Positions 2,139-20,477 of a stretch of DNA of 34,729 nucleotides are shown in pieces. The stretch lies in contig JAPLHW010000149.1 in NCBI GenBank assembly GCA_026389425.1, positions 1 through 34,729 of the forward strand, written 5' to 3'. The translations under genes and the position numbers were made by a program. Position 1 is the stretch's first letter. Each line of letters opens with the position of its first letter. Source of the stretch: Coprothermobacterota bacterium (GTDB lineage Bacteria > Caldisericota > JANLFM01). A model generated the notes under the pieces. That model was not told the origin of the DNA and ran no database searches. It saw only the letters and a list, made by a program, of their open reading frames with translations.

Positions 2139-2172
2139 CGTTCGGCTTGGGCTTGTTGCCCCAAGCCGAACG
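2139..2172 (+). terminator. 13-bp stem hairpin after the lipoprotein gene (terminator or mRNA stabilizer)
   Basis: CGTTCGGCTTGGG / CCCAAGCCGAACG perfect inverted repeat followed by GGTTTCT. Confidence 0.6.
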
Positions 2173-2215
2173 GGTTTCTGGGGATGCGATGGCTGCAAGG
2201 ATACGAGGAGGGAAC

Positions 2216-3055: not shown

Positions 3056-3056
3056 G

Positions 3057-3088
3057 AAAAATGAACGGGCTGCTGATGCAGCCCGTTC
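3057..3088. terminator. Rho-independent terminator between convergent genes
   Basis: GAACGGGCTGC-TGAT-GCAGCCCGTTC 11-bp stem preceded by an A-run, which is a U-tract on the minus strand. Confidence 0.7.
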
Positions 3089-3141
3089 GGTGGGATGGCA
3101 AGGATGCCGTCTCTAGGAAGGACGGTGTTTGGCCAACCAGA

Positions 3142-3921: not shown

Positions 3922-3939
3922 CGCGGATTCCTTTCCAAT

Positions 3940-5010: not shown

Positions 5011-5293
5011 GATCCTATCCTTTCTATTGCTTGTCCCTAGAACTTGCGTCAAAGTCTTGCTGAGATTGGTTTCCTCGTGTACTCTTGATTGCTTCGCGCG
5101 CGAGGGTTAGAAGGGAGCCGCAAGACGGCCGCTGGATTGGATGGTCACTGGAAATAGTGGAGGTGCAAGATACGGCGTGAACACAAGCCGAGATCTCGAG
5201 GTGAGACGCCCTGCCCTTTTGCGAAGACTTAGGGTGGATCTCGAGATTCTACCTTTCCGGTGCCAAGCCATAGGGCCGCACTTTCCCTTTCTA

Positions 5294-5323
5294 TTGACAA
5301 AAGTCAATTTCTCTCAGCATAAT
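5294..5323 (+). promoter_or_regulatory. Putative sigma70 promoter of the transporter/sugar operon
   Basis: TTGACA (5294-5299), 18-nt spacer, CATAAT (5318-5323). The -35 sits inside the palindrome ATTGAC-AAAA-GTCAAT. Confidence 0.6.
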
Positions 5324-5503: not shown

Positions 5504-6643
5504 ATGAAATTAAGCAGAGCAATTGTAGTTCTCATAACGGTGGCCGTATTGTTTTCGGCTATCGGTTGCGCCAGCAGCACGCCTACTCCAACACTTACAC
5601 CAACACCCACTTCAACTCCCAGCCCGACCCCCTCCCCGACCGCGACGACTCCCCCTCCACCAACCAGCATACGCCTTGGGGTTTTTATCCCTGGCCGTCT
5701 GGGGGATAGCCCTCCCTATGATGCGCTGGCCAACGGTGCGCAGAAAGCCGCCCTGCGTGACAAGCGCTTGACGGTGGAGGTTTTCGAGGCCGGCTTCGAT
5801 CAGTCCAAGTGGCAGGAACAGCTCACATCTTTCGCTGCTTCCGGTAAATATGACGTGATCTATGCTTCCAACGAAGCTCTCGGCCCGCTGGTGGTCAAAA
5901 CAGCCGCGACTGTGCCGAACGTGAAATTCCTGGTTAACGATTCCTATGTGACCGGCAACGACCGCATTTTCACCGCATTCTTCAACAAGTATCAGCAAGG
6001 TTACCTCTACGGTTACATGATGGCCCTCGTCTCCACCAGCACGCTGCCCGGCGCCAACCCGGACAAGAAGCTCGGCCTTATCTACGGCCAGCATTACACG
6101 ATGATGGATGACCTGATTATCCCCGGCATCGAGGCCGGTGCGAAGGCCGTCGACCCAGCCTTTGAGTTGAAGACGGCGATGCTGGGCAACTGGTACGACG
6201 CCAAGAAGGCTGAATCCCTGGCGAGCAGCCTGATCGATGAAGGCGTCGACTGTCTTGGCGCCATCGCCGGAAGCGGCAATGCCGGCGTCGTCAACGCAGC
6301 CAAAACCCGCGGGGTTTACATGGTTTGGTTCGATGTGGCCGGCTTCGACAAGGCGCCCGGGACCGTCATCGGCACCGTCGGAAGTTCCAACGAAGACCTG
6401 GTGACCCTCGAGTTGAAGAACCTGCTGGATGGGACTATCACCTGGGGCAAACCGCTCATTGTCGGCGCGGAGCAAGGATACATTTCCGTCCCGCTCCTTG
6501 CGCCCGGCTATGTCAACTACATGCCAGCCGACGCACAGAAGAAGTTCGCAGAAGTGTACAACAAAGTCGTCTCTGGCACATTACCTCTCCCCGTTCCGCA
6601 GGCCATCCTGGATAAGCTCGACAAGGCCGCCAAAGGGAGCTAG
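5504..6643 (+). CDS. rfuA: BMP-family ABC substrate-binding lipoprotein, RfuA-like, paralog 2
   Basis: SD AGGAGG, lipobox AIGC, PT linker. Motifs VFIPG..GDSPPY, ALVS.S...ANPDKKLGLI.GQHY..M, GNWYDA and WFD..G...APG as in recalled RfuA. Confidence 0.85.
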   Translation: MKLSRAIVVLITVAVLFSAIGCASSTPTPTLTPTPTSTPSPTPSPTATTPPPPTSIRLGVFIPGRLGDSPPYDALANGAQKAALRDKRLTVEVFEAGFDQSKWQEQLTSFAASGKYDVIYASNEALGPLVVKTAATVPNVKFLVNDSYVTGNDRIFTAFFNKYQQGYLYGYMMALVSTSTLPGANPDKKLGLIYGQHYTMMDDLIIPGIEAGAKAVDPAFELKTAMLGNWYDAKKAESLASSLIDEGVDCLGAIAGSGNAGVVNAAKTRGVYMVWFDVAGFDKAPGTVIGTVGSSNEDLVTLELKNLLDGTITWGKPLIVGAEQGYISVPLLAPGYVNYMPADAQKKFAEVYNKVVSGTLPLPVPQAILDKLDKAAKGS

Positions 6644-6705
6644 GGCTTACACGGAGCCCGTCTTTGGAGCAGACAGCCTGCGGCAGCATGTCCTGATACG
6701 AGATA

Positions 6706-6741
6706 AAATGGCCTGGTCGGGAGAACCCGACCAGGCCATTT
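6706..6741 (+). terminator. 16-bp stem hairpin between the binding-protein and ATPase genes
   Basis: AAATGGCCTGGTCGGG-AGAA-CCCGACCAGGCCATTT; the usual position for a differential mRNA-stability or attenuating hairpin in ABC operons. Confidence 0.65.
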
Positions 6742-6781
6742 CTACCAACGACAAAGCGAAACCGCTGCAAAGAAGGAACCG

Positions 6782-8380
6782 ATGGAATCGACGACACAGG
6801 CAGACAAAACTTCTATCCCGAATATCCTAGTGGAGATGCTCGGGATCTCCAAGGTCTACCCGGACAACAATGTCACTGCGAACAGCAATGTGCACTTCAA
6901 CTTGCAGAGGGGGGAGATCCACGCCCTGGTGGGGGAGAACGGCGCCGGTAAGACGACGCTGATGAAGATCCTCTGCGGCCTGGAACGAGCCGACCAGGGT
7001 ACTATCAAGGTCGGTGGCCGGCCTGTGCACATCCGCTCTGCCCGCGACGCCGACCGGCTAGGGATCGGCATGGTTCACCAGCGCTTCTGCCTGGTGGAAA
7101 ATTTCTCGGTAGCAGACAACATCGTGCTCGGTAAAGAACCCCTGCGAGGAGGGATTTTCTACGATCGAGCGAAGGCCAAGCAAACGGTCAAAGTGCTTTC
7201 CGAGGACTACGGCTTCGAGATGGACCCCAACGCCCTGGTAGGGACCCTTACCGTCGGCCAGAAGCAGCGGGTGGAGATCCTGAAGGTGTTGTATCGGGGT
7301 TCCACCATCCTTGTCCTGGATGAACCCACATCGCTCCTGACCGAACAGGAGATCAAGGTTTTTTTCCGGGTCCTGCGCCAGTTGAAAACGATGGGGTACA
7401 CCATCGTCATCATCACCCACAAGCTGGAAGAGGTCGGCCAGATCTCCGATCGCGTCACCGTTATGCGTGAGGGCCAAGTGGTGGACAGCCGGCCTTCCGC
7501 CAACCTGGACAAGGCCACCTTGGCCCGCCTAATGGTGGGCAAGGAAGTGTTGCTGCAGGTGGAAAAGCCGGCCAAAAACCCAGGCCTTCCCGTGCTCGAA
7601 ATCCGCGACCTGAGCCTGATCGATCCTACCTGCCCACGCCCTCTGCTGGCCGGGATCAACCTGCGGGTGAGGGCAGGAGAGGTGTTGGGTATTGCCGGGG
7701 TGGCTGGGAACGGACTCGGCGAGCTGGAAGATGTTCTCACAGGGATGAACAGTCGTGGCCGCCCTAGCGGGCAGGTGTTGATCGAGGGCTTGGAGGTCCT
7801 CGGACACTCTCCCGCCCGCCTACGGCGGATGGGCCTCGCCTATGTGCCGGCTGACCGCCTGCAACGCGGCAGCAGCTTGGCGCTGTCTCTTTCTGACAAC
7901 CTGATTGTGGTCAATCACCACGTTTTCCTCCGCTTCGGGATCTTGCGAAACCATTCTATCTCCAAGTTCTCCAACGATCTGATTCAGCGCTTCGGCATCA
8001 AGGGGAATATGAGCGCTCCGATCGGCACCCTCTCCGGTGGAAACATCCAGAAGGCGGTGCTTTCACGCGAGCTCTCCCGTCGACCCAAGTTGCTGATCAT
8101 CTCCGAACCGACCTGGGGCCTGGACGTCGCTTGTTCCGAGTTCGTCTATCAGGAGATCATAGAGATGCGCGGCGAAGAGACGGCTATCCTCTTGATTTCC
8201 TCCAACCTGGACGAAGTGTTGGCCCTCTCCGATCAAGTAGCGGTGATGTACAAGGGAGAGGTAGTTGCCCTCTTTCCGAACGTGGGCTTGGACCGCGAGT
8301 CCTTGGGCGGCTACATGCTGGGCTTGCACCGGCAGGAGGTCAAGGAGAAGAGCGGCTGCTGGGAAGAGAGAGCCCACTGA
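6782..8380 (+). CDS. rfuB: ABC transporter ATP-binding protein with two fused NBDs (CUT2, nucleoside/RfuB type)
   Basis: Walker A GENGAGKT, GIGMVHQ, LVLDEPT, ITHKL; second half LSGGNIQK and EPTWGLD. Confidence 0.9.
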   Translation: MESTTQADKTSIPNILVEMLGISKVYPDNNVTANSNVHFNLQRGEIHALVGENGAGKTTLMKILCGLERADQGTIKVGGRPVHIRSARDADRLGIGMVHQRFCLVENFSVADNIVLGKEPLRGGIFYDRAKAKQTVKVLSEDYGFEMDPNALVGTLTVGQKQRVEILKVLYRGSTILVLDEPTSLLTEQEIKVFFRVLRQLKTMGYTIVIITHKLEEVGQISDRVTVMREGQVVDSRPSANLDKATLARLMVGKEVLLQVEKPAKNPGLPVLEIRDLSLIDPTCPRPLLAGINLRVRAGEVLGIAGVAGNGLGELEDVLTGMNSRGRPSGQVLIEGLEVLGHSPARLRRMGLAYVPADRLQRGSSLALSLSDNLIVVNHHVFLRFGILRNHSISKFSNDLIQRFGIKGNMSAPIGTLSGGNIQKAVLSRELSRRPKLLIISEPTWGLDVACSEFVYQEIIEMRGEETAILLISSNLDEVLALSDQVAVMYKGEVVALFPNVGLDRESLGGYMLGLHRQEVKEKSGCWEERAH

Positions 8381-8385
8381 TAGCC

Positions 8386-9426
8386 TTGGACAGCCGAGCC
8401 AAGAGCAGCCTGGCCTCTTTCCTGGGGATTGTGCTCTCCATCCTGGTGGCGTTCATCATCGCTATCATCCTCATCTTCTCTTTCTCCAAAGATCCCGGCA
8501 AGACGCTTTACTGGTATTTCTTCGGGCCCTTCACCAATCCCTTTGTCTTCGGCAATATGCTGGAATCAGCCATCCCCTTGCTCTTCACCGGGCTGGGCAT
8601 GGCCGTAGCTTTCAAGAGCGGGGTGACCAACCTGGGCGGTGAAGGGCAGATCTTTGCCGGAGCGATCATGGCTGTCATCCTGGGGATTCTCCTTCCCAAC
8701 CTCCCTGGTGGGGTGGGGATCGCCACCCTACTTTTAGGCGGAGCCATCGTGGGCTCTCTGATGGCTGGCCTCTCCGGCTTCCTGCGTATGGCCTGGGGCG
8801 TTTCCGATCTTCTCACTACCTACTTGATCTCCACCGGGATGGTCTATGTCATCAATTATTTGATCCTTGGTCCCTTGCGCGATCCCGCCCAGATCACCAT
8901 CCAATCCCTCTCCATTCCGGCCGCCTACATGCTCCCCCGGCTTCTGCCGCCTTCCTATCTGCATTCCGGCCTCCTGCTGGGATTGGCGGCGGCGGTCTTC
9001 ATCTGGTTTCTGATCTACCGCACGCACCTTGGCTATGAGCTGCGCGTGGCCGGCTCGAACAGACAGTTCGGCCGCTACGGTGGGATCGAAGTGCGCCAAT
9101 ACCTGGTCCTGCCGATGCTCATCTCCGGCGCCCTGATCGGCTTGGGGGGCGCGGTCCAGGTGGTCGGCCGCTACGGCTCCTGCTTCTCCGATCTCACCGC
9201 CGGCCTAGGCTGGAACGGCATCGCCGTGGCTCTCATCGCTCGCTCCAACCCGCTCGGGGTGATCCCGGCAGCACTCTTTTACGCGTACCTGGACGCGGGC
9301 GCCAAGAGCGCTATGATCAATTCCGACATCACTTATGAGATCGCTTCCATTATCAGTGCCGTGATTTTTTATCTGGTTACCGCCGAAGCGGCAGTGGCCT
9401 TCATCCGCAGGAGGCTTGGCAAATGA
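8386..9426 (+). CDS. rfuC: ABC transporter permease (BPD_transp_2, RfuC-like)
   Basis: Hydrophobic helices, NLGGEGQ, GYELRVAGSN, GWNGIAVALIA. Start uncertain (8356 CTG, 8377 CTG or 8386 TTG). Confidence 0.85.
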   Translation: MDSRAKSSLASFLGIVLSILVAFIIAIILIFSFSKDPGKTLYWYFFGPFTNPFVFGNMLESAIPLLFTGLGMAVAFKSGVTNLGGEGQIFAGAIMAVILGILLPNLPGGVGIATLLLGGAIVGSLMAGLSGFLRMAWGVSDLLTTYLISTGMVYVINYLILGPLRDPAQITIQSLSIPAAYMLPRLLPPSYLHSGLLLGLAAAVFIWFLIYRTHLGYELRVAGSNRQFGRYGGIEVRQYLVLPMLISGALIGLGGAVQVVGRYGSCFSDLTAGLGWNGIAVALIARSNPLGVIPAALFYAYLDAGAKSAMINSDITYEIASIISAVIFYLVTAEAAVAFIRRRLGK

Positions 9427-10436
9427 ACGGATCCTACATTCCAGCGATTGCCCAGACCCTCACTATCATGACTCCCTTGCTGCTGGCAGCCACCGGTGGC
9501 CTCTTCTCCGCCCTGGCCGGCGTCTTGAACATCGCCTTGGAAGGGTTGATGCTCTGCTCAGCCTTCTTCTCGGTGGTCTTTACCGTGGCCAGCGGAAACC
9601 TTTTTGTGGGTATTCTCGGAGGAATCCTGGCCACTCTGCTCTTGACCGCCCTTTTCGCCTTCATCTCCCTCGGCTTGCGAGCCAATATCTTCATTTCCGG
9701 CTTGGCCACTAATTTGTTGGCTGCCGGCCTCTCCATCGTGCTCTCCTATGCCATCTATGGACAGACTGGATCCGTCAGCTTCCCCGATATGCCCCGACTG
9801 AATCCAATTGTCGTGCCGGGAATCTCGGACATCCCCATCCTGGGCGACATCTTCTCCGGGCAGAACATCCTAGTCTACATTTCCTGGATCATCCTCATCA
9901 TCGCCTCGGTAGTGATTTATCACACCCCCTTCGGCATGCGCTTGCGGGCGGTGGGGCACGACATGGAGGCAGCCCGTTCGGTTGGGATCAACCCCAAGCT
10001 GATTCAGTTCATTGCCATCCTCATCTCCGGCTTCACTTGCGCTCTCGCCGGGGCGATGTTGACCCTAACCTTGGGAGCTTTTGTCCCCAACGTGACCTCC
10101 GGCCGTGGCTGGATCGCCCTGGTGATCATCTACTTGGGCAACCGGACGCCAGTGGGGGTTCTGATCGGATCGATTATCTTCGGTTTGGTTGAGTACCTCA
10201 GCAACTTCCTGCAAGCCGTCTCCAACCTTCCCTCAGGGTTGCTCCTGGCTATGCCCTTCTTCGTTACTGTGCTCGCCTTGGTGCTTTACTCCATCCTCGA
10301 ACAACAACTGCACCATCGCCGGCGCACGGCATCTGCGAACCCTTCCTGCAACCTTCCACCGGAGGATAGCGGTCCAAAGTCTCCCGCATCTGCCATCGAG
10401 GGAAGCGAAGCGAGAGCGAGCGAAAGTGGAGGGTGA
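9423..10436 (+). CDS. rfuD: ABC transporter permease (RfuD-like)
   Basis: TPLLLAATGG, NIALEGLM, TPFGMRLRAVG, GRGWIAL; ATGA overlap with the upstream permease. Confidence 0.88.
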   Translation: MNGSYIPAIAQTLTIMTPLLLAATGGLFSALAGVLNIALEGLMLCSAFFSVVFTVASGNLFVGILGGILATLLLTALFAFISLGLRANIFISGLATNLLAAGLSIVLSYAIYGQTGSVSFPDMPRLNPIVVPGISDIPILGDIFSGQNILVYISWIILIIASVVIYHTPFGMRLRAVGHDMEAARSVGINPKLIQFIAILISGFTCALAGAMLTLTLGAFVPNVTSGRGWIALVIIYLGNRTPVGVLIGSIIFGLVEYLSNFLQAVSNLPSGLLLAMPFFVTVLALVLYSILEQQLHHRRRTASANPSCNLPPEDSGPKSPASAIEGSEARASESGG

Positions 10437-10444
10437 TAACTTGC

Positions 10445-10472
10445 ATAGGGGCGACGCATGTGTCGCCCCTGC
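10445..10472. repeat. GTAG-family REP-like palindrome
   Basis: ATAGGGGCGACGCATGTGTCGCCCCTGC; aligns without gaps to the palindrome at 14117-14144. Confidence 0.65.
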
Positions 10473-10475
10473 TAT

Positions 10476-10530
10476 CTTGCGGCAACTTGACAACCCGCGG
10501 CAGCAGCTCTATAGCCCGCGGCAGCGCGTT
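10476..10530 (+). repeat. Degenerate ~18-bp GCGGCAGC-core tandem repeat (3 units)
   Basis: cttgcggcaacttgacaa / cccgcggcagcagctctatag / cccgcggcagcgcgtt; same family as 13077 and 23882. Confidence 0.6.
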
Positions 10531-10552
10531 CTGTGGTAAATAGGAGGATCCG

Positions 10553-11575
10553 ATGAAGCAATTGCAGCTTTTCGCTCCCCGCGACCTGCGCTTGGTCGAG
10601 GCCGAGTGTTCCGCTCCGGCCAAAGGTGAGGCATTGGTGCGGATCGAGTCCTGCGGCATCTGTACACTGGAGCAGCGCCTCTTCTCTGGGGCAATGAAGA
10701 TCTACTATCCGATTGTTCCCGGACATGAGGCCGCCGGCGTGGTTGAGGAGGTGGGTGCGGATTCGATCACTGCCTTGCAGCCGGGGGAGACCGTCTCCCT
10801 CGACCTCGTCTATCGCTGTGGCGAGTGCTATTGGTGCCGCAACGGGCAAAGCAACCACTGCGCCAATCGCTTCGCCGAAGGAGTCAACCCCCTGGGAGGT
10901 TTCTCCCAGTACATCGTGGTGGGTACTCGGCAATGTTTCCAGCTTCCCGCTGAGATCCCTCCCCGCGAAGCCTGTTTCGCCGAACCGCTGGCCTGTTGTA
11001 TTCACTCCCTGCGGAAAGCGAGCCTGAAGGTGGGAGAGGACCTATTGGTGGTCGGAGCGGGACCGATGGGCCTCTTGCACGCCCTGGCAGGCAGCAAGAT
11101 GGGTGCGCGCGTCTTCGTCGCTGATCCGCTCCAAGAGCGCCGTTCGTTAGCGCAAAGACTAGGGGCGGATCTCACCCTGGATCCTGCGGTCCCGCTGAAA
11201 GAGCAATTGTTGGCAGAGACCGGCGGTCGTGGCGTTGATGTCGCTGTTGTCACCGCACCGGTGAGTGAGGTCCTGCGCGAGGCAGCGATGGCAGTACGCA
11301 AGGGCGGCCGGGTCACCGCTTACTCGGCGTATAGCGACACCTTCGACCTGCCGGTGGACGCCAATTACTTGCACCGCTCCGAGGTCTCCGTCTTCGGGGT
11401 GGAAGGACGCACCGAGCGAGACTTCCAGGTCGCGGTCAAGTTGATCGGCACGCACCAGGTGGATGTCTCCCCGTTGATCAGCGCGGAATACAGGCTGGAA
11501 GAGTTCAACCAGGCTATGGAGATGGCCGGTAAGCCGGACCAAATCCGCGTCCTTTTCAATCTGAAGGAGGACTGA
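10553..11575 (+). CDS. Zn-dependent medium-chain (polyol/sorbitol-type) dehydrogenase
   Basis: CGIC, GHE, structural Zn site CGECYWC-x7-C, and the Rossmann motif GAGPMG. Confidence 0.92.
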   Translation: MKQLQLFAPRDLRLVEAECSAPAKGEALVRIESCGICTLEQRLFSGAMKIYYPIVPGHEAAGVVEEVGADSITALQPGETVSLDLVYRCGECYWCRNGQSNHCANRFAEGVNPLGGFSQYIVVGTRQCFQLPAEIPPREACFAEPLACCIHSLRKASLKVGEDLLVVGAGPMGLLHALAGSKMGARVFVADPLQERRSLAQRLGADLTLDPAVPLKEQLLAETGGRGVDVAVVTAPVSEVLREAAMAVRKGGRVTAYSAYSDTFDLPVDANYLHRSEVSVFGVEGRTERDFQVAVKLIGTHQVDVSPLISAEYRLEEFNQAMEMAGKPDQIRVLFNLKED

Positions 11576-11581
11576 GGGGGC

Positions 11582-13072
11582 TTGGCGAATCAACTCATTT
11601 GGGCTTTCGATATCGGTACCACCAGCCTGAAGGCGGTAGCTTTCAGGCCTGACGGATCGGCCGTAGCTCGTGCCCAAGCTGGTTATACCCTTACTTTCCT
11701 GCCTGGAGACCGCATCGAGACGAATCCTTCCTCCTGGGAACGAGCCTTCCGTCATTGCGCCGCGCAACTGCGGACGGTCCCCGCTGCCGCTAAGCCTGAA
11801 GCGATCGTCGTCGGAGGTCAGGGACCCACCCTGGTCCCTCTGGGGAAGAACGGAAAAGCTGTCGACCAGGCCATCTCCTGGATGGATCGCCGGGCCACGG
11901 ATCAGTCGCTGGAGATACGTGAGCGCACCGGTCTGATCGTAGACAGTTCCTTCTATATGCCCAAAGCTCTCTGGTACAGCCGACACGGATTCGCCAGGGG
12001 GCGTGTCCGATGGTATACCTCCTGCCCAGACTATATCGTCGGGCGGCTCACCGGGCAACTGGTGACCGGCCTCCCTGCGCCCGGCTTCCAGGCGCTGGTT
12101 TGGCAGCGCCAGGCCATGGAGGCTTTCGGTCTGGCGGAGGCGTGGCCGCCCTTTGTCCCCTGCGGCCAGGTGGTCGGACCGGTCAGTAAACGAGGAGAAG
12201 CCTGGAGCCAGGTGAGTCAGGGGATACCAGTGGTGGTGGGTCCTCCCGACTTCGTTGAGTCCTGGCTGGGCACGGCCACTGTCAAGCCGGGGCGAGCAGT
12301 GGACCGGGGCGGCACCAGCCAAGGCATCAATCTCTGCACTGACCAACCCGTGCGCGACACTCGCCTACTGACCTTACCTCACATCGTTCCCACCCTTTGG
12401 AACTTGTCCGGCATCATCTCTACTTCAGGCAAGGCCTTGGAGTGGGTTCGCTCGCTGGTCGGGTGGGAGCGGGTACCCTACCAGGAGGTATTCCGGCGGG
12501 CGATGGCAGTCCCTCCGGGGGCGGAGGGTTTGCTCTTCCTCCCCTACCTGGCCGGGGAGCGAGCCCCTCTCTGGCGGGCTGATGCGCGTGCTCTCTTTTT
12601 TGGACTGCACTTGCGCCATACCCCCGCCCATCTCGTCCGAGCCGTCCTGGAAGGGGTGGGTTACGCTATGCGCCACGTTTTGGGCTGTATTCAAGAACAC
12701 GGACTGGAAGTCATCCAGTTTCGTTGTACCGGCCGCCAGGCCACGAGTATCGACTGGACCCGGATCAAAGCCTCAATTACCGGTATTCCCTGTCTTCTCC
12801 CTGGCGAGGTGGAGGCCGAACCGCTGGGGGGAGCTATCCTTGGGGCGGTGACCTTGGGTTGGTATGCGGATCTGGTCAGCGCCGCGGAGGCGATGGTGTG
12901 CATCTCCCAGGAGATATTCCCGGAGACTTCTTGGGAGACGCTTTATCGGGAAGGGTTCCTTCTCTACCGCTCCTTGGCTGAGGATTCGCTCGGTCATTTC
13001 TCGGCTCTTACGAAGTATCGCCAGGAAAGCAATAATGCTCCTCCGGGAGATGTGGTTGCTTACGGCAGCTAG
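11582..13072 (+). CDS. FGGY-family carbohydrate kinase (xylulokinase-like)
   Basis: DIGTTSLK, ISWMDRRA, FLPYLAGERAP, RAVLEGV, LGGAILG. Confidence 0.92.
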   Translation: MANQLIWAFDIGTTSLKAVAFRPDGSAVARAQAGYTLTFLPGDRIETNPSSWERAFRHCAAQLRTVPAAAKPEAIVVGGQGPTLVPLGKNGKAVDQAISWMDRRATDQSLEIRERTGLIVDSSFYMPKALWYSRHGFARGRVRWYTSCPDYIVGRLTGQLVTGLPAPGFQALVWQRQAMEAFGLAEAWPPFVPCGQVVGPVSKRGEAWSQVSQGIPVVVGPPDFVESWLGTATVKPGRAVDRGGTSQGINLCTDQPVRDTRLLTLPHIVPTLWNLSGIISTSGKALEWVRSLVGWERVPYQEVFRRAMAVPPGAEGLLFLPYLAGERAPLWRADARALFFGLHLRHTPAHLVRAVLEGVGYAMRHVLGCIQEHGLEVIQFRCTGRQATSIDWTRIKASITGIPCLLPGEVEAEPLGGAILGAVTLGWYADLVSAAEAMVCISQEIFPETSWETLYREGFLLYRSLAEDSLGHFSALTKYRQESNNAPPGDVVAYGS

Positions 13073-13076
13073 AAAG

Positions 13077-13127
13077 GCTGCGGCAGCATGATAGCCCCCG
13101 GCAACTTGACAGCTCGCGGCAGCGTGT
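13077..13127 (+). repeat. 18-bp GCGGCAGC-core tandem repeat (3 units)
   Basis: gctgcggcagcatgatag / cccccggcaacttgacag / ctcgcggcagcgtgt. Confidence 0.65.
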
Positions 13128-13149
13128 CCAAGAAAGGTGATTCCAACCC

Positions 13150-13971
13150 ATGAACACGGGAAAACGCATTCGCTTGAAACAGATTCTGCGAAAAGACGGT
13201 CGCACGGTGATCGTTGCCCTCGACCACGGAGGCATCGCCGGGAGCATGCCCGGCATCGAAGACCCCGCCTTGGCGATCCGCGCTTGCCGTCAGGGAGGAG
13301 CTGACTGTGTCTTGACCACACGTGGCTTTGCCAGCCTCTCTGAGAATGAGTGGGACCGCAGCCTCAGTTTGATGATGCGGCTGACCGGAGGCTTCACCGT
13401 CCTGGGCGGAAAGTTCGAAGAGGAGCTGATCACCTCGGTGGAAGCAGCCATCGCCCTGGGCGCTTCCTCGGTGATCGCCACCGTGAAGTTCGGTCACCCC
13501 CGAGAGAGTGAGTTCATCCGCAATGCTTCGCTGGTGGCTGACGCCTGCGAGCGTTGGGGAATTCCCCTAACCATCGAGGCGATGGCTCAGGGAACGCTCT
13601 ACGGCAAACCCCTTTCTGGCAAAGCCGACCCCGCTGGAATCGTTTTGGCCGCACGGATGGCTCAGGAGCTTGGGGCCGACCTGATCAAGACCTATTACAC
13701 AGGGACACCGGAAAGCTTCGCCGCGGTGACAGCCGGCTGCCCGGTGCCGGTGGTGATCCTGGGCGGCGAAAAGAGCGAGGACGACGCGGCACTCTTCCGT
13801 AGCGTGCGTGATTCCATCGCTGCCGGCGGAGCCGGTATCGCCATCGGTCGTAACATTTGGCAAGGTGGTCGTACCCAAACGATGACCGAGGCGATGGTCG
13901 GTGTAGTGCACCAGGGCTGGACGGTGGAACAGGCGTTAGCCCATCTGGGAGAATCCGCGGGATCTCGGTGA
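13150..13971 (+). CDS. Class I (DhnA/archaeal-type FBP aldolase / LsrF family) aldolase
   Basis: VALDHG, ELGADLIKTYY (Schiff-base Lys), VILGG, GRNIWQ. Confidence 0.92.
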   Translation: MNTGKRIRLKQILRKDGRTVIVALDHGGIAGSMPGIEDPALAIRACRQGGADCVLTTRGFASLSENEWDRSLSLMMRLTGGFTVLGGKFEEELITSVEAAIALGASSVIATVKFGHPRESEFIRNASLVADACERWGIPLTIEAMAQGTLYGKPLSGKADPAGIVLAARMAQELGADLIKTYYTGTPESFAAVTAGCPVPVVILGGEKSEDDAALFRSVRDSIAAGGAGIAIGRNIWQGGRTQTMTEAMVGVVHQGWTVEQALAHLGESAGSR

Positions 13972-14175: not shown

Positions 14176-15183
14176 ATGCAGAACCTGAAGGGACGAGATT
14201 GCATCAGCATCGACGGTTTTTCCGTGGAAGAGATCGAGTTCATCATCGATGTCGGCCGGCAATTGAAAAGGGAGCTGAAGATGGGGCGTTACAATCCTTT
14301 GCTTCTGGGAAAAAGCCTGGCGGCGATCTTCGAGACACCCTCCACCCGGACCAGCATCTCCTTCGAGACCGGCGTACAGCAGATGGGCGGGCACATGCTC
14401 TGGCTGGATCCCCACCGACTGTGGGTGGGCGAGGCCCAGGAGGAAGACTGGCATGACACCATCAAGACCATCGCCCGCTACTGCGACGGCATCGCCTACC
14501 GCTCCATCGGCCAGGCGCGCCAGCTCTCCGCTGCCGAGTTCGCCGATATCCCGGTGATCAACGCCTCCAGCCCGGTGGAGCACCCCTGTCAGTCTTTCGC
14601 CGATGTGCAGACGATGATGGAAAAGAAGGGAGACCTTCGCAAGGCCAAGGTCGCTTTCTGCTGGGGCTACCGAACCGCCAACCCCCCGGCCGGCTTGACC
14701 AACTCCACCATGCTGATGGCTGGGAAGCTTGGATTCGAACTGGCTATCGCTTGCCCGGAAGGGTTCGATCCGGACATGGATGTCTACCGACGAGCCCAAG
14801 AATGCGCAGCCCTTTCCGGCGGTAAGATCTCTTTGGTCCGTTCCTATGAGGAAGCGGTCCAGGACGCTGACTTTATCAACGTCTATTCCTGGGTGTCCCC
14901 GGAGATGTTCGCCAAGGGCCTGGAGACCCATTTCCAGGGCGACGCTGCCTTCCAGGCGCGCAAGGCCGCACTCCTTGAAGAATGGTGCGTAACAGCGAAA
15001 GTCGTGGGGATGGCCAGGAAAGATTGTATGGTCATGCACTGCATGCCCATCTCGCGCAACACCGAGGTGACCGACGAGGTTCTCAACAGCCCCGCCAGCA
15101 TCATTTTCGATCAGGCCGAGAACCGCTTGCATGTGCAGAAAGCGATCATGGCCTTGACCATGGGCACCACGGTCAATTTCTAG
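14176..15183 (+). CDS. Carbamoyltransferase of the OTCase/ATCase superfamily, non-canonical (ArgF'/YgeW-like)
   Basis: Carbamoyl-phosphate motifs STRT, HPCQ, HCMP and QAENRLH are present. The ornithine-binding DxxxSMG is replaced by YSWVSPE. Confidence 0.88.
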   Translation: MQNLKGRDCISIDGFSVEEIEFIIDVGRQLKRELKMGRYNPLLLGKSLAAIFETPSTRTSISFETGVQQMGGHMLWLDPHRLWVGEAQEEDWHDTIKTIARYCDGIAYRSIGQARQLSAAEFADIPVINASSPVEHPCQSFADVQTMMEKKGDLRKAKVAFCWGYRTANPPAGLTNSTMLMAGKLGFELAIACPEGFDPDMDVYRRAQECAALSGGKISLVRSYEEAVQDADFINVYSWVSPEMFAKGLETHFQGDAAFQARKAALLEEWCVTAKVVGMARKDCMVMHCMPISRNTEVTDEVLNSPASIIFDQAENRLHVQKAIMALTMGTTVNF

Positions 15184-15193
15184 GCGAGCACGC

Positions 15194-16039
15194 ATGGTCA
15201 GGTACATCACTCCTCACAGCTTGAACGAGGCCTTACAAATCCTTGATCAGGAGGAGCATTGCCTCCCCCTGGCCGGGGGAACTGACTTGACCTTGCTGGT
15301 GCGGGATCGAACGGTGCAAGTGGAGTGCTTGCTGGACATCAGCAAGCTGCCTGAGCTGGTCGGTGTTCATCAGGAGGGCGGAGAGATCCGGATCGGCCCC
15401 TCTACGACGTTGGCTGATGTCGCCTCATCGCCCCAGTTGCCCACTGCTCTGCGCACTGGTGCGGGTTGGATTGGTTCCCCGCAAATCCGTGCCTTGGGGA
15501 CGATCGGGGGGAATATCTGCAACGCTTCCCCCTGCGGTGACACCCTCAGCCCGCTCCTCGTCCTGGGCGGCCGCTTCCGACTGCGCAGTGCAGGCGGAGA
15601 GCGCGAGGTGCCTGCCGAAGCTTTCTTCCTCGGGCCCAAGAGAACCATTCTCACCCGGGGTGAGCTGCTGGTGGGGATTCATCTCCCCCGAGAGGACGAC
15701 CGGCGTTCAACTTTCCGGAAAATCGGCGGTCGTGGCGCCCAAACCATCGCCCAGGTCAACCTGGCCATCTCCGCTTGCTGGAGGGAGGGGATCCTCAGAC
15801 AACCCCGCCTGGCGGTCGGTTCAGCCGCCCCAACCCCGATCCGCATCCCCGCTGTGGAGCGGATCCTTGATGGACAGAGCCTTGGTGACGAGGTAATCGC
15901 TGAAGCTGCTGAGCGAACGGCAGCGGAGATCCGACCCATCTGTGACCAACGGGCTTCCGATCGGTATCGCCGCTGGGTCGTCCGGGCTCTTTTCCGCGAT
16001 GCCTTGTCATCCCTCACAGAGCAGGAGGTGTATGGATGA
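15194..16039 (+). CDS. Xanthine dehydrogenase-family FAD-binding subunit (XdhB/CoxM-like)
   Basis: LAGGTDL, GSPQIR..GTIGGNICNASPCGD, PICDQRAS..YR. Confidence 0.92.
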   Translation: MVRYITPHSLNEALQILDQEEHCLPLAGGTDLTLLVRDRTVQVECLLDISKLPELVGVHQEGGEIRIGPSTTLADVASSPQLPTALRTGAGWIGSPQIRALGTIGGNICNASPCGDTLSPLLVLGGRFRLRSAGGEREVPAEAFFLGPKRTILTRGELLVGIHLPREDDRRSTFRKIGGRGAQTIAQVNLAISACWREGILRQPRLAVGSAAPTPIRIPAVERILDGQSLGDEVIAEAAERTAAEIRPICDQRASDRYRRWVVRALFRDALSSLTEQEVYG

Positions 16040-16557
16040 GCGAGATCAACACCCGCGGCAGCACGTCAGGGGGGACAGATTTCAAATCTGTCCCCATAGC
16101 ATTCCGCTTGAACGGTCGCCCTGTTTCTGCCTGTATCGACGGCGGCTTGCGCGCCCTCGACCTCTTGCGCGAGGGATTCGGACTAACCGGGGTGAAAGAA
16201 GGATGTGGGCGCGGTGAGTGCGGCGCCTGCACAATCCTCCTCGATGGTCGTCCGGTCAATGCTTGTCTGTTATTGGCAGCTAAATTGGAAGGCTGCGAGG
16301 TGTTGACCATCGAAGGCATGGCTTCTCCAGACGGGACACTTCATCCCTTGCAGGCCGCTTTCCTCAAGGCGGGCGCGGTGCAATGCGGATTCTGCACCCC
16401 GGGAATGGTTCTGGCCGCCAAGAGCCTGCTCGACGCTAGGCCAAACCCCAACGAGGAAGAGATCGCCCGTGCCTTGAGCGGCAACTTCTGTCGATGCACC
16501 GGCTATACCAAGATCATCAAGGCGGTGCACTTAGCCGCCGAGGAGATGAGGCGATGA
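16036..16557 (+). CDS. Xanthine dehydrogenase-family [2Fe-2S] subunit (CoxS-like)
   Basis: GCGRGECGACT, QCGFCTPG, GNFCRCTGY. Confidence 0.95.
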   Translation: MSEINTRGSTSGGTDFKSVPIAFRLNGRPVSACIDGGLRALDLLREGFGLTGVKEGCGRGECGACTILLDGRPVNACLLLAAKLEGCEVLTIEGMASPDGTLHPLQAAFLKAGAVQCGFCTPGMVLAAKSLLDARPNPNEEEIARALSGNFCRCTGYTKIIKAVHLAAEEMRR

Positions 16558-18833
16558 CCGCCCCCTTCCGTACCATCGGTCAACCCGTCAGCAAGATCGA
16601 CGGAGTCGAGCTGGTCACCGGACGGGCACGCTATACGGCCGACCTGCAGTTTCCCGGCACATTGCAAGCGGTGGCCCGTCGCGCCGGGTTCGCGGCTGGC
16701 TTGCTCCATCGTCTGGATGTGGAGGAAGCCCGCCGGTCCCCCGGGGTAGTATTGGTTCTCACCCCTGCGGATCTGCCCGGCCCTAATCTGATCGGTATCC
16801 TACCCCCCTTCGACCAGCCCCTATTGGCCGGCCCGGAGATACGCCACGAAGGCGATTCCTTGGCTCTGGTCGTGGCGGAGACCCAAGATCAGGCCGAGGC
16901 AGCCGCTTCCCTCATCGTAGCCGAGATCGAGCCTTTTCCTCCGCTCCTCGATCCCGAGGAAGCCATGCGCCCGGAGGCGCGCAAGATTCATCCCAACGGC
17001 AACCTGACCTTTGCCAAACAGCTCCTGAAGGGAGATGTCGAGGCTGGTTTCTCCCTAGCCGAAGTGATCGTAGAGGACACCTACCGTACCAGCGTCCAGG
17101 ATCATGCCTACCTGGAGCCGGAAGCCGTGCTAGCCGTGCCGGAGAGCGACGGACGCTTAACGGTGTACGCCTCGTGCCAGTCACCCTTCCACTTGCGAGG
17201 CCACATTGCCGCCAACACCGGCCTCCCCGCCTCTCGTGTGAAAGTCGTGCAGCCCTTCGTCGGCGGATCCTTCGGAGGCAAGGATGATGCCGTTACCGAG
17301 ATGGGCTCGCTGGCAGGTGCGGCGGCCCTTAAGCTGGGTCGCCCGGTACGCATCGTTCACTCCCGCAGAGACTCTTTCCTGGGCTCGCATGCCCGTCATG
17401 CCGCCATCATTCATCTCAAGACCGGCGCTCTGCGCGACGGCACGATCGTCGCCCGCCAGGCCGAGATCCTTCTTGACGGAGGGGCGTACGCCTCGGAGAG
17501 TCCCTTCGTGGTCATGAAAGCGTTAATCCACGTGGCAGGCCCTTATAAGATCCCCCATCTTCGGGTGGACTGCCGCGCCGTTTACACTAACAAACGTCAG
17601 GCTGGAGCGATGCGCGGTTTCGGCGTACCACAAGTCACTTTTGCCTCGGAATCCCAGATCGATGCTCTAGCTCGCGAGCTGAGCTTCGACCCTTGGGAGC
17701 TTCGCCGTCGCAACGCCTTGACGGTGGGCGAAGCCAATGCCACCGGTCAGGTTTTCCAGGAGTCGGTGGGATTGATCCAGACTCTGGAGCTGGTGAAGGT
17801 GGAAGGGGAGTGGCCGGCCTGCTGGGAAAAGGCCCATGCTGGCAGCAACCCTCGCTTCAAGCGAGGTGTCGGACTGGCCGCCATGATGCAGGGAATCTCC
17901 AACGGGGCGGAAGGAGTCGATGTGGTCGGCGCTTCCGTCCAAGTCAGCCAAGACGGTAGCGTCCTGGTCGGGTTGGGCCTGACCGAGTTGGGTCAGGGCA
18001 GCCGAACGGCCATGGCCCAGATTGCCGCTGAGATCTTGGGCGTTCGACTGGAGAAGATCAGCGTCCGGCAAGTGGATACCGATACTGTCCATGATTCCGG
18101 CCCGACCGTGGCCTCCCGCACCACCACAGTGGGGGGGAAAGCAGTCTGGATGGCCGCCCAAGCTGTGCGCACATCACTGTTGGAGATGGCTGGGCTGATG
18201 TTTAAAGCTCCTGCTGAGGCGATTGAGTTGGGGGAAGACCTCGCTTACCTGCGGGAAAACCAAGAAGCCCAGATTCCGCTTGCCCAGGTCGCTACAGCCG
18301 CTTACTGGACTGGCTTTCCTTTGATGAACCTAGCTTTCTCCCGCGCCCCCGACGCGCAGTACGATCACGAGACTCACCAGGGCCAGATCTACATCGCCTA
18401 TAACTATGGCGCTCACCTGATGGAGGTGGAAGTGGACACCTGGACTGGAAAGGTTCGCGTGCTTAGGCACCTTGCCAGCCACGATGTGGGCAAGGTGATC
18501 AACCCCCTGGGAGTAGAAGGCCAAGTGGAGGGAGCTGCCTTGATGGGATTGGGTTTCGCCCACTTGGAGGAAGTCCTTCAGGAGAACGGGAAGGTTCGCA
18601 ATGCCAACTTCGCTGATTACCAGATCCCGTCCTTTGCAGAGCGACTTCCCACCCGATTCCTTGCGGTGGAAGAAGCGACCCCCAATGGCCCCTTCGGCGC
18701 CAAAGGGATCGGTGAACCTCCCCTGGCTGGAACAGCCGCAGCCTTCGCCAACGCGGTCTCGGACGCTTTGGGAATCTCTTTCACGCGTTTGCCCATCACC
18801 CCCCAGCGGATCCTGGAGGCCCTGGAGGGATAA
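16554..18833 (+). CDS. Xanthine dehydrogenase-family molybdopterin-binding subunit
   Basis: ATG at 16554 (ATGA overlap). HAYLE, GGSFGGK, AMRGFG, ELGQG, ASRTT, GQVEG, GAKGIGEPP. Confidence 0.95.
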   Translation: MTAPFRTIGQPVSKIDGVELVTGRARYTADLQFPGTLQAVARRAGFAAGLLHRLDVEEARRSPGVVLVLTPADLPGPNLIGILPPFDQPLLAGPEIRHEGDSLALVVAETQDQAEAAASLIVAEIEPFPPLLDPEEAMRPEARKIHPNGNLTFAKQLLKGDVEAGFSLAEVIVEDTYRTSVQDHAYLEPEAVLAVPESDGRLTVYASCQSPFHLRGHIAANTGLPASRVKVVQPFVGGSFGGKDDAVTEMGSLAGAAALKLGRPVRIVHSRRDSFLGSHARHAAIIHLKTGALRDGTIVARQAEILLDGGAYASESPFVVMKALIHVAGPYKIPHLRVDCRAVYTNKRQAGAMRGFGVPQVTFASESQIDALARELSFDPWELRRRNALTVGEANATGQVFQESVGLIQTLELVKVEGEWPACWEKAHAGSNPRFKRGVGLAAMMQGISNGAEGVDVVGASVQVSQDGSVLVGLGLTELGQGSRTAMAQIAAEILGVRLEKISVRQVDTDTVHDSGPTVASRTTTVGGKAVWMAAQAVRTSLLEMAGLMFKAPAEAIELGEDLAYLRENQEAQIPLAQVATAAYWTGFPLMNLAFSRAPDAQYDHETHQGQIYIAYNYGAHLMEVEVDTWTGKVRVLRHLASHDVGKVINPLGVEGQVEGAALMGLGFAHLEEVLQENGKVRNANFADYQIPSFAERLPTRFLAVEEATPNGPFGAKGIGEPPLAGTAAAFANAVSDALGISFTRLPITPQRILEALEG

Positions 18834-18843
18834 TTGTTCTCAA

Positions 18844-18875
18844 AGGACTTGCTGCCGCAGGCTGGATTGTTCCAA
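18844..18875 (-). repeat. Single GCGGCAGC-core element, an inverted near-copy of 6664-6694
   Basis: The reverse complement ttggaacaatccagcctgcggcagcaagtcct compares with ttggagcagacagcctgcggcagcatgtcct at 6664. Confidence 0.55.
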
Positions 18876-19027
18876 GGTTCCTCCAGCGGAGATCCGAAGA
18901 AAAGCTTCAAGGAGATCGATTCAGAAGAAGGCGGAGCGCAGCGGGCAAGAAGCCTGCGATGGCTTGGGGACAGATTAGACCTCTGGTCAATCCGGAAATC
19001 TGTCACCCTGATAGAAAGGAGATGAAG

Positions 19028-20419
19028 ATGATTGATCTATTGATACGAGGCGGACTCGTCCTCACGCTTGAGCCAAACACCTTGCAAGGACCGGTCTATG
19101 CCGATGGTGCGGTCGCTGTAGAGGGCAATCGCATCGTCGCCGTGGGTCCTACGGCGGAGGTGGAGGCTGCTTTTCCTGATGCCCGTGAGGTGATCGATGC
19201 GCGGGGACGGATCGTCATGCCCGGTTTTGTCTGCACCCACACCCACATGCCGTACGTGCTGGGGCACAATATGCCGGTGGACTTCAGCCAGTTACATTCC
19301 TTCTGGGACATGCTGCAGAAGATGGGATGGAAGTGGTTGGAGGATCTCACTACTGCCCAAGGGGTGTACGCGGCCACCCGCTACGCTGCCGCCAAGATGT
19401 TGAAGAGCGGCACTACCACTGTGTGCGAGCTGGTGGAGGCGCCTATCGCCTTGGGTAGATCACCATCCCCTCTGCAATGCTCCGCCCAGGCTGTCGAGGA
19501 GATCGGCATCCGTGCCCAGATTGGTTTTGAAGTCACCGAGCGGGTCCTCGGCGTGCCTGTTCTGGAGCGGTTGGAGCGGGCCAACGCAGAGAAGGGCTTC
19601 ACCGAGAACCTGGCTTTCCTGGAGAAGCACCCGCCGAGGAACGGCAGTCGCGTGGAAGGGCGCCTGGGAGTGCACACCGCTTTCACCAACTCGTACCAGA
19701 CCCTGCGTCAGGCGCGTGAGGTGGCCGACACCTACGACTGCGGCATTGAGATCCATGTCGCCGAGATCCCCCGTGTCTTCCTGGTGGAGAAATTCGGTAA
19801 ATCCGCACCGGAAGTGCTGGAAGAGACCGGCTTACTGGGGCCGGATGTGATCGCCGCCCACTGCATCGACCTGACCGACGGAGATTTGGAGATCCTTCGC
19901 CGCAACGGGGTGAACGTTGCCCACACGCCGATGAGCAACTCCCTCGGCGGCAATGGCGTGGCCCGCATCCCACACATGCTGGAACTGGGGATCAACGTTA
20001 CCTTGGGCCACGATTGCTTCTTCACCCTGGATTATTCCCAATACTTCCGTTACATGTATCTGTTACACAAGGCCCACAATGCCAACCCGATGTTGATCCC
20101 TCCTTTTCAGGCGCTGGATATCGCCACCGGGAACGGCGCGCGCGCGATGGGCCTGGATGATGAGATCGGCAGCCTGAAGGTCGGCAAGAAGGCCGATCTG
20201 ATCGTGATCCGACCGGATTCGCCCACCCCGACCACGCCTGAGTCGGTCATTTCCTTTTTCACCATGACCTTCGAGGGGCGGCAGGTCGAGCATGTCATCG
20301 TGGACGGCCGGGTGGTGGTGAAGAGCGGCCGCTTGACCACCGCCGACGAGGATGAGGTTCATGCGGCTTGTCTGGAGGAAGCGAAGATCCTCTGGCGTAA
20401 AAACGGTATTTTGATATAG
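19028..20419 (+). CDS. Metal-dependent amidohydrolase (SsnA/AtzA/nucleobase deaminase-like)
   Basis: MPGFVCTHTH, GTTT, HVAE, AAHC, LGHD, GSLKVGKKADL; SD AAAGGAG. Confidence 0.92.
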   Translation: MIDLLIRGGLVLTLEPNTLQGPVYADGAVAVEGNRIVAVGPTAEVEAAFPDAREVIDARGRIVMPGFVCTHTHMPYVLGHNMPVDFSQLHSFWDMLQKMGWKWLEDLTTAQGVYAATRYAAAKMLKSGTTTVCELVEAPIALGRSPSPLQCSAQAVEEIGIRAQIGFEVTERVLGVPVLERLERANAEKGFTENLAFLEKHPPRNGSRVEGRLGVHTAFTNSYQTLRQAREVADTYDCGIEIHVAEIPRVFLVEKFGKSAPEVLEETGLLGPDVIAAHCIDLTDGDLEILRRNGVNVAHTPMSNSLGGNGVARIPHMLELGINVTLGHDCFFTLDYSQYFRYMYLLHKAHNANPMLIPPFQALDIATGNGARAMGLDDEIGSLKVGKKADLIVIRPDSPTPTTPESVISFFTMTFEGRQVEHVIVDGRVVVKSGRLTTADEDEVHAACLEEAKILWRKNGILI

Positions 20420-20477
20420 ACTATCCCATTATCGCCGGGGTCTCTCGGGATCCCCGGCAAAGAAAGCAGGGAACGAA

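Follow-up and report, generated by a model that had tools for sequence, protein, structure and literature searches.

The gene cluster described here lies in a 34,729-nucleotide stretch of DNA—contig JAPLHW010000149.1 of a Coprothermobacterota bacterium (assembly GCA_026389425.1, forward strand), called the window in the following—and joins an ATP-binding cassette (ABC) importer of predicted riboflavin type to a Zn-dependent dehydrogenase, an FGGY-family kinase, and a class I aldolase. The module is read here as a catabolic (or overflow) route for the ribityl side chain of riboflavin. On balance, it is probable that imported riboflavin is phosphorylated at the 5'-position, oxidized at the 4'-position, and cleaved to dihydroxyacetone phosphate (DHAP) and formylmethylflavin. 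The cluster appears to be a variant of the fin-type neighborhood, a kind that was proposed only recently and is itself a hypothesis.

Observations of anaerobic vitamin B2 breakdown go back more than 50 years, with hydroxyethylflavin and formylmethylflavin present in gut contents and urine. To our knowledge, no enzyme is known for the oxygen-free breakdown of riboflavin. Candidate genes in a few gut Lachnospiraceae were named from expression data alone (PMC13492142). Clostridium scindens degrades riboflavin anaerobically, and 17.5 μM riboflavin induces its "flavin induced neighborhood" fin (Quiles Perez et al., J Bacteriol 2026, PMC13492142). The fin genes comprise the RibF-like kinase finB, the class I aldolase finC, the Zn alcohol dehydrogenase finD, and the sugar-binding regulator finE, and in addition, permeases, an aldehyde dehydrogenase (ALDH), and glycine-reductase-like genes; the hosts given are C. 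scindens, Faecalicatena fissicatena, and Muricomes intestini (long form) (PMC13492142). It was hypothesized by the same authors that finBCD free a triose and leave formylmethyl- or hydroxyethylflavin, and an overflow of reduced flavins was raised as well; in the growth experiments described there, neither ribitol nor ribose substituted for riboflavin (PMC13492142).

The window offers a separate line linking the dehydrogenase–aldolase pair to flavin, with the importer joined and in two further phyla. Roughly one in ten of the Spirochaetia sampled carry the cluster. It would imply a substrate class new to FGGY kinases and extend vitamin destruction by riboflavin auxotrophs to habitats outside the gut. 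The immune receptor MR1 is reported to bind flavins with shortened side chains (PMC12650265), and hence, their producers are of interest for host immunity. In the literature searched, which covered few subscription journals, only PMC13492142 and its preprint tie an aldolase to anaerobic riboflavin breakdown, and neither an FGGY kinase nor an Rfu importer is mentioned in this context.

Importer of riboflavin type and the adjoining enzymes

The run at 5504–13971 lies entirely on the + strand and consists of a binding lipoprotein, an ABC ATPase, two permeases, the Zn dehydrogenase, the FGGY kinase, and the class I aldolase. The enzyme trio starts 116 bases past the end of permease 2. An earlier, sequence-only reading of this DNA had placed the three enzymes (10553–13971) directly after the permeases; this arrangement is borne out, and its gene positions, family calls, and quoted motifs all proved correct. 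No intergenic terminator-like site was found on the + strand within 5504–13971. Upstream of the second binding-protein gene, a sigma-70-like promoter match (5294–5323, + strand; TTGACA-18-CATAAT) agrees with the consensus at 11 of 12 positions and is a consensus match only.

The importer features two RfuA-like substrate-binding lipoproteins, which are 64% identical to each other: paralogue 1 (934–2103, + strand; Pfam Bmp/PnrA-like, 152.6 bits; lipobox AVGC) and paralogue 2 (5504–6643, + strand; Pfam Bmp, 168.9 bits). The ATPase, in an RfuB-like position (6782–8380, + strand), carries two Pfam ABC_tran stretches. Permease 1 (8131–9426, + strand) has its BPD_transp_2 domain at residues 142–416 of the longest frame; this frame overlaps the ATPase gene, and the real start is probably downstream of 8131. 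Permease 2 (9423–10436, + strand) is a further BPD_transp_2 protein (115.7 bits). The identity to the counterparts in spirochaete clusters amounts to 46–52% for the ATPase, 42–47% for permease 1, and 50–58% for permease 2. Both binding proteins match TpN38(b)/RfuA of Treponema pallidum (PDB 4IIL) far better than PnrA (2fqw), with 212 versus 70.9 bits for paralogue 2 and 185.7 versus 49 bits for paralogue 1. In TP0298/RfuA, the residues Y27, N82, Y157, and W189 predict riboflavin binding, and S24 makes the sole direct polar contact to the riboflavin ring (Deka 2013, PMC3573665). The equivalents of all five, as read from HMMER alignments in which the 4IIL chain index is the number in that paper plus 22, are kept in both window proteins and are invariant in the 27 cluster-linked binding proteins aligned: two from the window, two from a relative of the same family (G003), and 23 from spirochaetes. 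The assignment of both binding proteins as RfuA paralogues, made earlier from the sequence alone, is upheld by these scores and contact residues, and the importer is predicted to be of riboflavin type.

The same chemistry could act on another ribityl or polyol heterocycle—such as the methanogen deazaflavin FO, 6,7-dimethyl-8-ribityllumazine, or a compound of roseoflavin type—with riboflavin at best a side substrate. The RfuA structure buries the ribityl tail and exposes the dimethylbenzene edge to solvent (PMC3573665), and changes at this exposed edge could be tolerated. The distance between the two paralogues could mean two ligands, and genes for a xanthine dehydrogenase (XDH), an SsnA-like amidohydrolase, and a PreA-like protein adjoin the window cluster, although only sporadically so in spirochaetes. 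However, the invariance of the five riboflavin-contact residues argues against a different ligand, as does the homologous fin pair, whose neighbors are flavokinase homologues and whose response is to riboflavin proper. A different heterocycle is, hence, judged unlikely.

The first enzyme behind the importer is a Zn-dependent medium-chain dehydrogenase of 340 residues (10553–11575, + strand; Pfam ADH_N and ADH_zinc_N), which belongs to a FinD-like CxICTLExR subfamily. It features the catalytic Zn ligands C37, H58–E59, and E144, the four structural Zn cysteines C89/C92/C95/C103, and the Rossmann motif GAGPMG; an Asp suggests a preference for NAD. The protein passes no NCBIfam model—the top one being IolM, 172 bits against a cut-off of 450—and among solved structures, archaeal threonine dehydrogenases come nearest (148 bits). 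The stretch CGICTLE, noted before as divergent, spans residues 34–40, a position usually occupied by a GICGSD-type stretch. The divergence is real and marks a clade: CGICTLEQRL[YFW] was found in 36 of 36 orthologues, and C-x-I-C-T-L-E-x-R is invariant across the dehydrogenases of the window, of a spirochaete, of an Actinomycetota locus, and of Clostridia loci, that is, in four phyla.

The FGGY-family kinase (11582–13072, + strand; 496 residues; Pfam FGGY_N and FGGY_C) stays below the NCBIfam cut-offs as well (top model XylB, 197 bits against 380), and its top PDB match is an uncharacterized FGGY kinase (3ifr, 130 bits). Going by the roles of these motifs in the FGGY family, DIGTT at residues 10–14 would be the DxGT motif of the N-terminus, and the catalytic Asp would be the one within GPPDF. 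GPPDFVESW, the second motif that the sequence-only reading had called divergent, occupies residues 220–228; it, too, is real, and its GPDF core is present in the commonest kinase variants among the orthologues, a signature of the clade. The trio is probably not a set of ordinary sugar enzymes since none of the three reaches the NCBIfam cut-off for a characterized sugar or polyol enzyme.

The third enzyme is a DhnA-type class I (Schiff-base) aldolase of 273 residues (13150–13971, + strand; Pfam DeoC, PF01791, the DeoC/LacD family) and is FinC-like. It narrowly passes the NCBIfam model PRK07226, a broad "ADH synthase" subfamily, with 244.8 bits against 241. The PDB matches are MJ0400 with 179 bits and LsrF with 105 bits, the latter rising to 159 bits with a clade profile. 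The Schiff-base K180, D25, and the phosphate loops GG 205–206 and GRN 233–235 are retained. Met145 sits at the catalytic-Tyr position of MJ0400 and of the fructose bisphosphate (FBP) aldolase of Thermoproteus tenax, in which the Tyr is presumably Tyr146.

The host genome is 87% complete and belongs to a sparsely sampled lineage, the order counting nine species genomes and the phylum 93. An aldolase orthologue was found in four of these 93 genomes, all in one family, and the gene order of the cluster recurs in three relatives from this family (G003, G004, and G006). Orthologues among public proteins are 58–67% identical and come mostly from Spirochaetes assemblies; among species genomes, identity is 57–64% at ten spirochaete loci and then drops sharply to 46% or less. 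Within the Spirochaetia, 43 of 401 sampled genomes carry an orthologue. This recurrence in three family relatives and 43 Spirochaetia genomes means that the gene arrangement is far beyond chance. In the approximately 9.5 kb taken on each side of all 43 loci, the aldolase is adjoined by the kinase in 39, by the dehydrogenase and the full trio in 35, and by RfuA-type transporter genes in 27; at 14 of the loci, the sequence stops at a contig end. Three placements of the transporter occur: on the same strand and upstream (18 loci), behind the aldolase (seven), and divergent (two), and hence, the adjacency has survived rearrangement. The proposed link between the trio and a riboflavin-type importer is supported by these three arrangements and by the RfuA residues kept in the linked binding proteins, which point to a functional tie.

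The spirochaete loci feature two additional genes: in 19 of 43, a MerR regulator gene precedes that of the dehydrogenase, and in 26 of 43, a major facilitator superfamily (MFS) transporter gene comes after the aldolase. Just past the MFS gene, on the opposite strand, selenocysteine genes occur (SelB, SelA, and tRNA-Sec, e.g., L014:11930–15192 and L013:13978–14065), with SelB in 16 and SelA in 13 of the 43 loci. Simple synteny within the lineage may account for this; it is worth recording since the long form of fin ends in a GrdB-type selenoprotein. Control by a flavin mononucleotide (FMN) riboswitch was considered and dropped, as searches of the window and of seven spirochaete loci gave no such element. 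The regulators of the clusters are IclR in the window (20478–21284) and MerR in spirochaetes, which, along with the lack of a riboswitch, fits induction rather than vitamin-starvation control.

Kinship with fin and the proposed chemistry

The comparison with fin was made on a metagenome contig (L155), which was assigned to fin by its architecture and does not carry the C. scindens genes themselves. Its genes are ordered OYE, aldolase, Zn alcohol dehydrogenase, SorC, permease, flavokinase-type RibF, ALDH, GrdB, and glycine-reductase component B, and its aldolase is identical to a protein that NCBI names from Muricomes intestini. This order matches the long fin layout as described in PMC13492142. 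The window dehydrogenase is 38% identical to its counterpart there (E 2e-80) and the window aldolase 33% (E 1e-51). Clostridia loci with the succession aldolase, Zn alcohol dehydrogenase, SorC regulator were found as well. Of 67 fin-type loci, 59 have the dehydrogenase next to the aldolase and 28 a RibF-like gene; approximately 20 of the remaining loci without a RibF-like gene are near-copies of one lineage. The window cluster has no RibF-like FinB, the FGGY kinase standing in its place, and no flavokinase domain was found anywhere in the host genome. Two independent lines appear to connect the dehydrogenase–aldolase pair with riboflavin: in fin, a flavokinase homologue and induction by the vitamin; in the window type, the Rfu importer and the FGGY kinase.

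Further loci with the pair were seen. A lineage of the L072, L078, and L173–L190 type, which has the aldolase, a CxICTLE-type Zn alcohol dehydrogenase, and a SorC regulator, is very abundant in gut metagenomes, with one protein cluster holding 1306 member sequences, and its L072 set adjoins sugar-type ABC permeases. In an Actinomycetota assembly (L016:8915–10774), an aldolase gene (46% identical) comes immediately after one for a CxICTLE-type dehydrogenase (41% identical), and in the tree, this aldolase groups on the dehydrogenase-coupled side. CRISPR-Cas genes are near, kinase and Rfu genes are not, and the pair may here have a third context.

The aldolases share residue changes across both cluster types. 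At the position of the catalytic Tyr, all 69 generic DhnA/ADHS-like proteins have Tyr, all 16 FGGY-type aldolases have Met or Ile, and all 18 fin-type aldolases have Leu. Two residues before, the generic set has Met, whereas FGGY-type and fin-type aldolases have Glu (Glu143 in the window). In the trees, which are unrooted for want of a usable outgroup, the FGGY-type, fin-type, and generic groups each lie behind a well-supported branch and meet at one node. The attempt to show by a rooted tree that the aldolases of FGGY type and of fin type are sister groups was, hence, dropped, and the shared residue changes were used instead.

The observations comprise gene content, homology, synteny, and conserved ligand and catalytic residues; from them, we infer a scheme, including its substrate, step order, products, and direction, as follows. 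The RfuABCD-type importer with its two RfuA-like lipoproteins would take up riboflavin. The FGGY kinase would phosphorylate the terminal 5'-hydroxyl, most simply yielding FMN. The NAD-type Zn dehydrogenase would then turn the 4'-hydroxyl into a ketone, which creates an end resembling a ketose-1-phosphate. Finally, Lys180 of the aldolase would form a Schiff base at this 4'-ketone and break the C2'–C3' bond to release DHAP and 10-formylmethylflavin. The flavin product could be reduced to hydroxyethylflavin and exported—in spirochaetes possibly by the product of the MFS gene that follows the aldolase. In ketose-1-phosphates, the bond cut by class I DHAP aldolases is C3–C4, which should correspond to C3'–C2' of the 4'-keto-5'-phospho-ribityl chain.

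The steps likely run in the order kinase, dehydrogenase, aldolase. Since fin uses a flavokinase homologue, FMN is likely the intermediate shared by both pathways, with the kinase acting first. The order given by the sequence-only reading—oxidation, epimerization, phosphorylation, cleavage—is not favored because the fin kinase, as a flavokinase homologue, should make FMN at the outset. Stereochemistry also bears on the epimerization. The 2',3'-diol of the D-ribityl chain is erythro, like that of tagatose bisphosphate, while that of fructose bisphosphate is threo. The aldolase would need erythro specificity, as is known from LacD, a class I enzyme in this Pfam family, and with an erythro-specific aldolase, no epimerase is required in principle.

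Counterevidence, rival substrates, and the flavokinase gap

Several points speak against a route for breaking down riboflavin. Its yield would be poor, with one DHAP gained for at least the ATP of import plus one kinase ATP. We know of no FGGY kinase or Zn alcohol dehydrogenase that takes a bulky N-linked aromatic substrate. The aldolase is devoid of the catalytic Tyr of FBP aldolases, as is the thiolase LsrF, and a common origin of FGGY-type and fin-type aldolases is not proven by an unrooted tree. The hosts look like riboflavin auxotrophs, since RibH was found in none of the nine genomes of the window's order and in one of five cluster-bearing spirochaetes. None of five spirochaete genomes checked has a close RfuA-type copy other than the binding protein linked to the cluster (the next matches are 26–30% identical), and the importer may therefore simply be a housekeeping vitamin importer. 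At two of the 43 spirochaete loci (L117 and L118), the trio occurs without a transporter despite at least 6 kb on both flanks. In a near-clonal fin-type group (L078-like), aldolase, Zn alcohol dehydrogenase, and SorC occur with no RibF-like gene within 10 kb, and hence, the pair may serve other substrates in some lineages.

The last two points would also fit an ordinary pathway for a free polyol or pentulose, which ends in DHAP and a glycolaldehyde-like aldehyde and has the importer as a mere neighbor or draws on ribitol freed by a hydrolase. The top family matches are polyol or threonine dehydrogenases and xylulokinase or gluconokinase, and the sugar-type ABC permeases beside L072 point in the same direction. 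Yet, all three enzymes score far under the cut-offs of curated sugar enzymes, and the adjacency to RfuA-type genes was kept through three arrangements and in two phyla. The only transporter genes found beside the trio are RfuA-type ABC and MFS genes, other importer types not having been searched for, and the cluster holds no conserved candidate for a riboflavin hydrolase. Ribitol and ribose were also no replacement for riboflavin in the growth of C. scindens as described in PMC13492142. A free-polyol pathway is, hence, quite unlikely.

The FGGY kinase could also be the riboflavin kinase of the cell within a system that serves mainly the supply or balance of FMN and not carbon nutrition, in which the pair drains surplus or damaged (reduced) flavin or, running in reverse, rebuilds FMN out of DHAP and formylmethylflavin. 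The flavokinase family PF01687 was found in none of the nine genomes of the window's order and is missing from 37 of the 43 cluster-bearing Spirochaetia, and the archaeal-type kinase PF01982 is missing from all four genomes of the window's genus. RibF comprises FAD_syn only in the host genome and in one spirochaete genome, and an overflow role is discussed by the fin authors, too (PMC13492142). On the other hand, 334 of 358 sampled Spirochaetia without the cluster are likewise without PF01687, six of the 43 cluster bearers have a flavokinase, one relative (G003) has PF01982 in addition to the cluster, and the reverse direction needs external formylmethylflavin, for which we see no evidence. 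A role in FMN supply or balance is, hence, considered very unlikely.

The details of the flavokinase gap are as follows. PF01687 is absent from 371 of the 401 sampled Spirochaetia (present in 30), and the gap is general in this class rather than specifically filled by the FGGY kinase. The phylogenetic-profile argument that the FGGY kinase fills in for a missing flavokinase, which had started from the order of the window and from five cluster-bearing spirochaetes that all lack PF01687, was therefore dropped. A FAD_syn gene is present in all nine genomes of the window's order. In the host, this is a RibF of 250 residues next to truB (contig C16, L091:1362–2114), for which a search as permissive as E 1 gave no flavokinase match. 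More broadly, the truB-adjacent RibF is a FAD_syn-only protein of 250–274 residues with an unassigned C-terminal tail of approximately 90–100 residues. The archaeal CTP-dependent riboflavin kinase was found in four of the nine genomes of the order, in none of the four of the genus, and in none of the five spirochaetes checked.

A tentative extension of the riboflavin route is that the FGGY enzyme acts as a riboflavin 5'-kinase—a third, unrelated kind of flavokinase and a main source of FMN where none is recognizable—and that the pair dismantles surplus or reduced FMN to DHAP and formylmethylflavin. What carries this idea after the loss of the profile argument is the analogy with fin: the fin pair is served by a true flavokinase homologue, and with FMN as the shared intermediate, the FGGY enzyme would be the one that makes it. 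In this case, it would be a main FMN source in the window's genus and in most cluster-bearing spirochaetes.

An LsrK/LsrF-like pathway, in which the kinase acts on a small diketone or keto-polyol and the "aldolase" is a CoA-dependent thiolase yielding DHAP and acyl-CoA, is most improbable: the aldolase does match LsrF, which has lost the catalytic Tyr as well, and the kinase weakly matches autoinducer-2 kinase (83 bits), but the LsrF model scores 162 bits against a cut-off of 297 and the LsrK model 83 against 528, MJ0400-type aldolases match better, the binding protein is of Bmp/RfuA and not of LsrB type, and no LsrG-like gene was seen among the frames scanned, small frames not having been searched exhaustively.

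Neighboring genes and comparison with known systems

Three genes (2147–5052) separate the two binding-protein genes in the window: a xylose-isomerase-like TIM barrel (2147–3055, alternative start 2216, + strand), an HpcH/HpaI aldolase (3142–3921, − strand), and an Ldh_2-family dehydrogenase (3940–5052, − strand; top match L-sulfolactate dehydrogenase, 274 bits, below the cut-off of 500). The TIM barrel remains below the cut-offs as well (IolO 61 bits and psicose 3-epimerase 42 bits, each against 300). It had been put forward as a ketose-3-epimerase of the pathway; the gene exists and is xylose-isomerase-like, but its membership in the pathway was rejected, as the insertion is missing from G003 and G006—where the binding-protein genes lie in tandem—and from all 43 Spirochaetia loci, which places the TIM barrel outside the conserved system. 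The insertion looks like a small separate module for keto acids or sugar acids.

At the edge of the window, divergent from binding protein 1, lies the fragment of a PreA-like gene (3–686, − strand; Pfam DHO_dh, of the DHO_dh plus 4Fe-4S type). A full-length homologue in L007 features DHO_dh and two 4Fe-4S domains, and a PreA-like gene adjoins the binding-protein gene in five of the 43 Spirochaetia loci and in G006. Behind the aldolase, the stretch 14176–21284 holds an OTC-like carbamoyltransferase, a three-subunit molybdoenzyme of xanthine-dehydrogenase type, an SsnA/TRZ-ATZ-type amidohydrolase (18959–20419, + strand), and the IclR regulator; the relatives G003 and G004 retain this block. The amidohydrolase has a 65% identical counterpart in L007 two genes upstream of the binding-protein gene, with the PreA-like gene in between; it is kept after the trio in G003 and occurs in two of the 43 Spirochaetia loci. 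Beside the spirochaete clusters, the PreA-like gene is found in five, the OTC-like gene in four, the amidohydrolase in two, and XDH in one of the 43. The amidohydrolase and the PreA-like gene are possibly associated with the cluster, and the block could serve the degradation of the flavin pyrimidine ring or an unrelated purine pathway. Further away, a DOMON plus cytochrome b561 membrane protein (22718–23788, − strand) lies beside a Kelch-repeat β-propeller protein of 855 residues (24167–26734, − strand), a pair unusual for a small bacterial genome.

RcaE of Microbacterium maritypicum and Devosia riboflavina has the same target as the window cluster: the ribityl chain of riboflavin. This O2-dependent flavin monooxygenase sets free lumichrome and the C5 chain as a whole (PMC13492142). 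The two systems have no enzyme families in common.

MJ0400 (PDB 2QJG) and the FBP aldolase of T. tenax (1OJX and 1W8S) share the fold and family of the window aldolase as well as its Lys, Asp, and GG/GRN loops. The window aldolase differs by a Met in place of the Tyr and has no neighbors of aromatic-amino-acid or glycolytic type.

In the LsrK/LsrF system of Escherichia coli, as in the window, an FGGY kinase precedes a Schiff-base enzyme of the DhnA family with DHAP as a product (a predicted one in the window), and LsrF is also without the Tyr. The window differs by its family of binding protein and by a Zn dehydrogenase—which is not part of lsr—in place of the LsrG isomerase, and nothing in it points to CoA dependence.

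The RfuABCD importers of T. pallidum, Treponema denticola, and Borrelia have a lipoprotein of the same Bmp/PnrA fold with the same five contact residues (PMC3573665, PDB 4IIL). Both systems feature one two-domain ATPase and two BPD_transp_2 permeases per operon. The window importer is, in contrast, joined into an operon with three enzymes of catabolic type, and its family features two binding proteins and N-E instead of N-P at the strained Asn.

The fin neighborhood is the closest relative of the window cluster. The Zn dehydrogenase and the DhnA-type aldolase are homologous, with the same CxICTLExR motif and the same loss of the catalytic Tyr, and in both cluster types, a kinase gene lies beside the pair and a permease is at hand for a product. 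The kinase is RibF-like in fin and of FGGY type in the window. The RfuABCD importer is physically linked in the window, whereas the ribU importers of C. scindens are repressed at high riboflavin (PMC13492142). Regulation is assigned to SorC in fin and to IclR or MerR in the window and in spirochaetes, and neither ALDH nor glycine-reductase-like genes lie within approximately 10 kb of the window-type clusters. The hosts of fin are Lachnospiraceae, those of the window type Spirochaetia and a small uncultured phylum. The logic proposed for both is the same: phosphorylation, oxidation, and the cleaving off of a triose.

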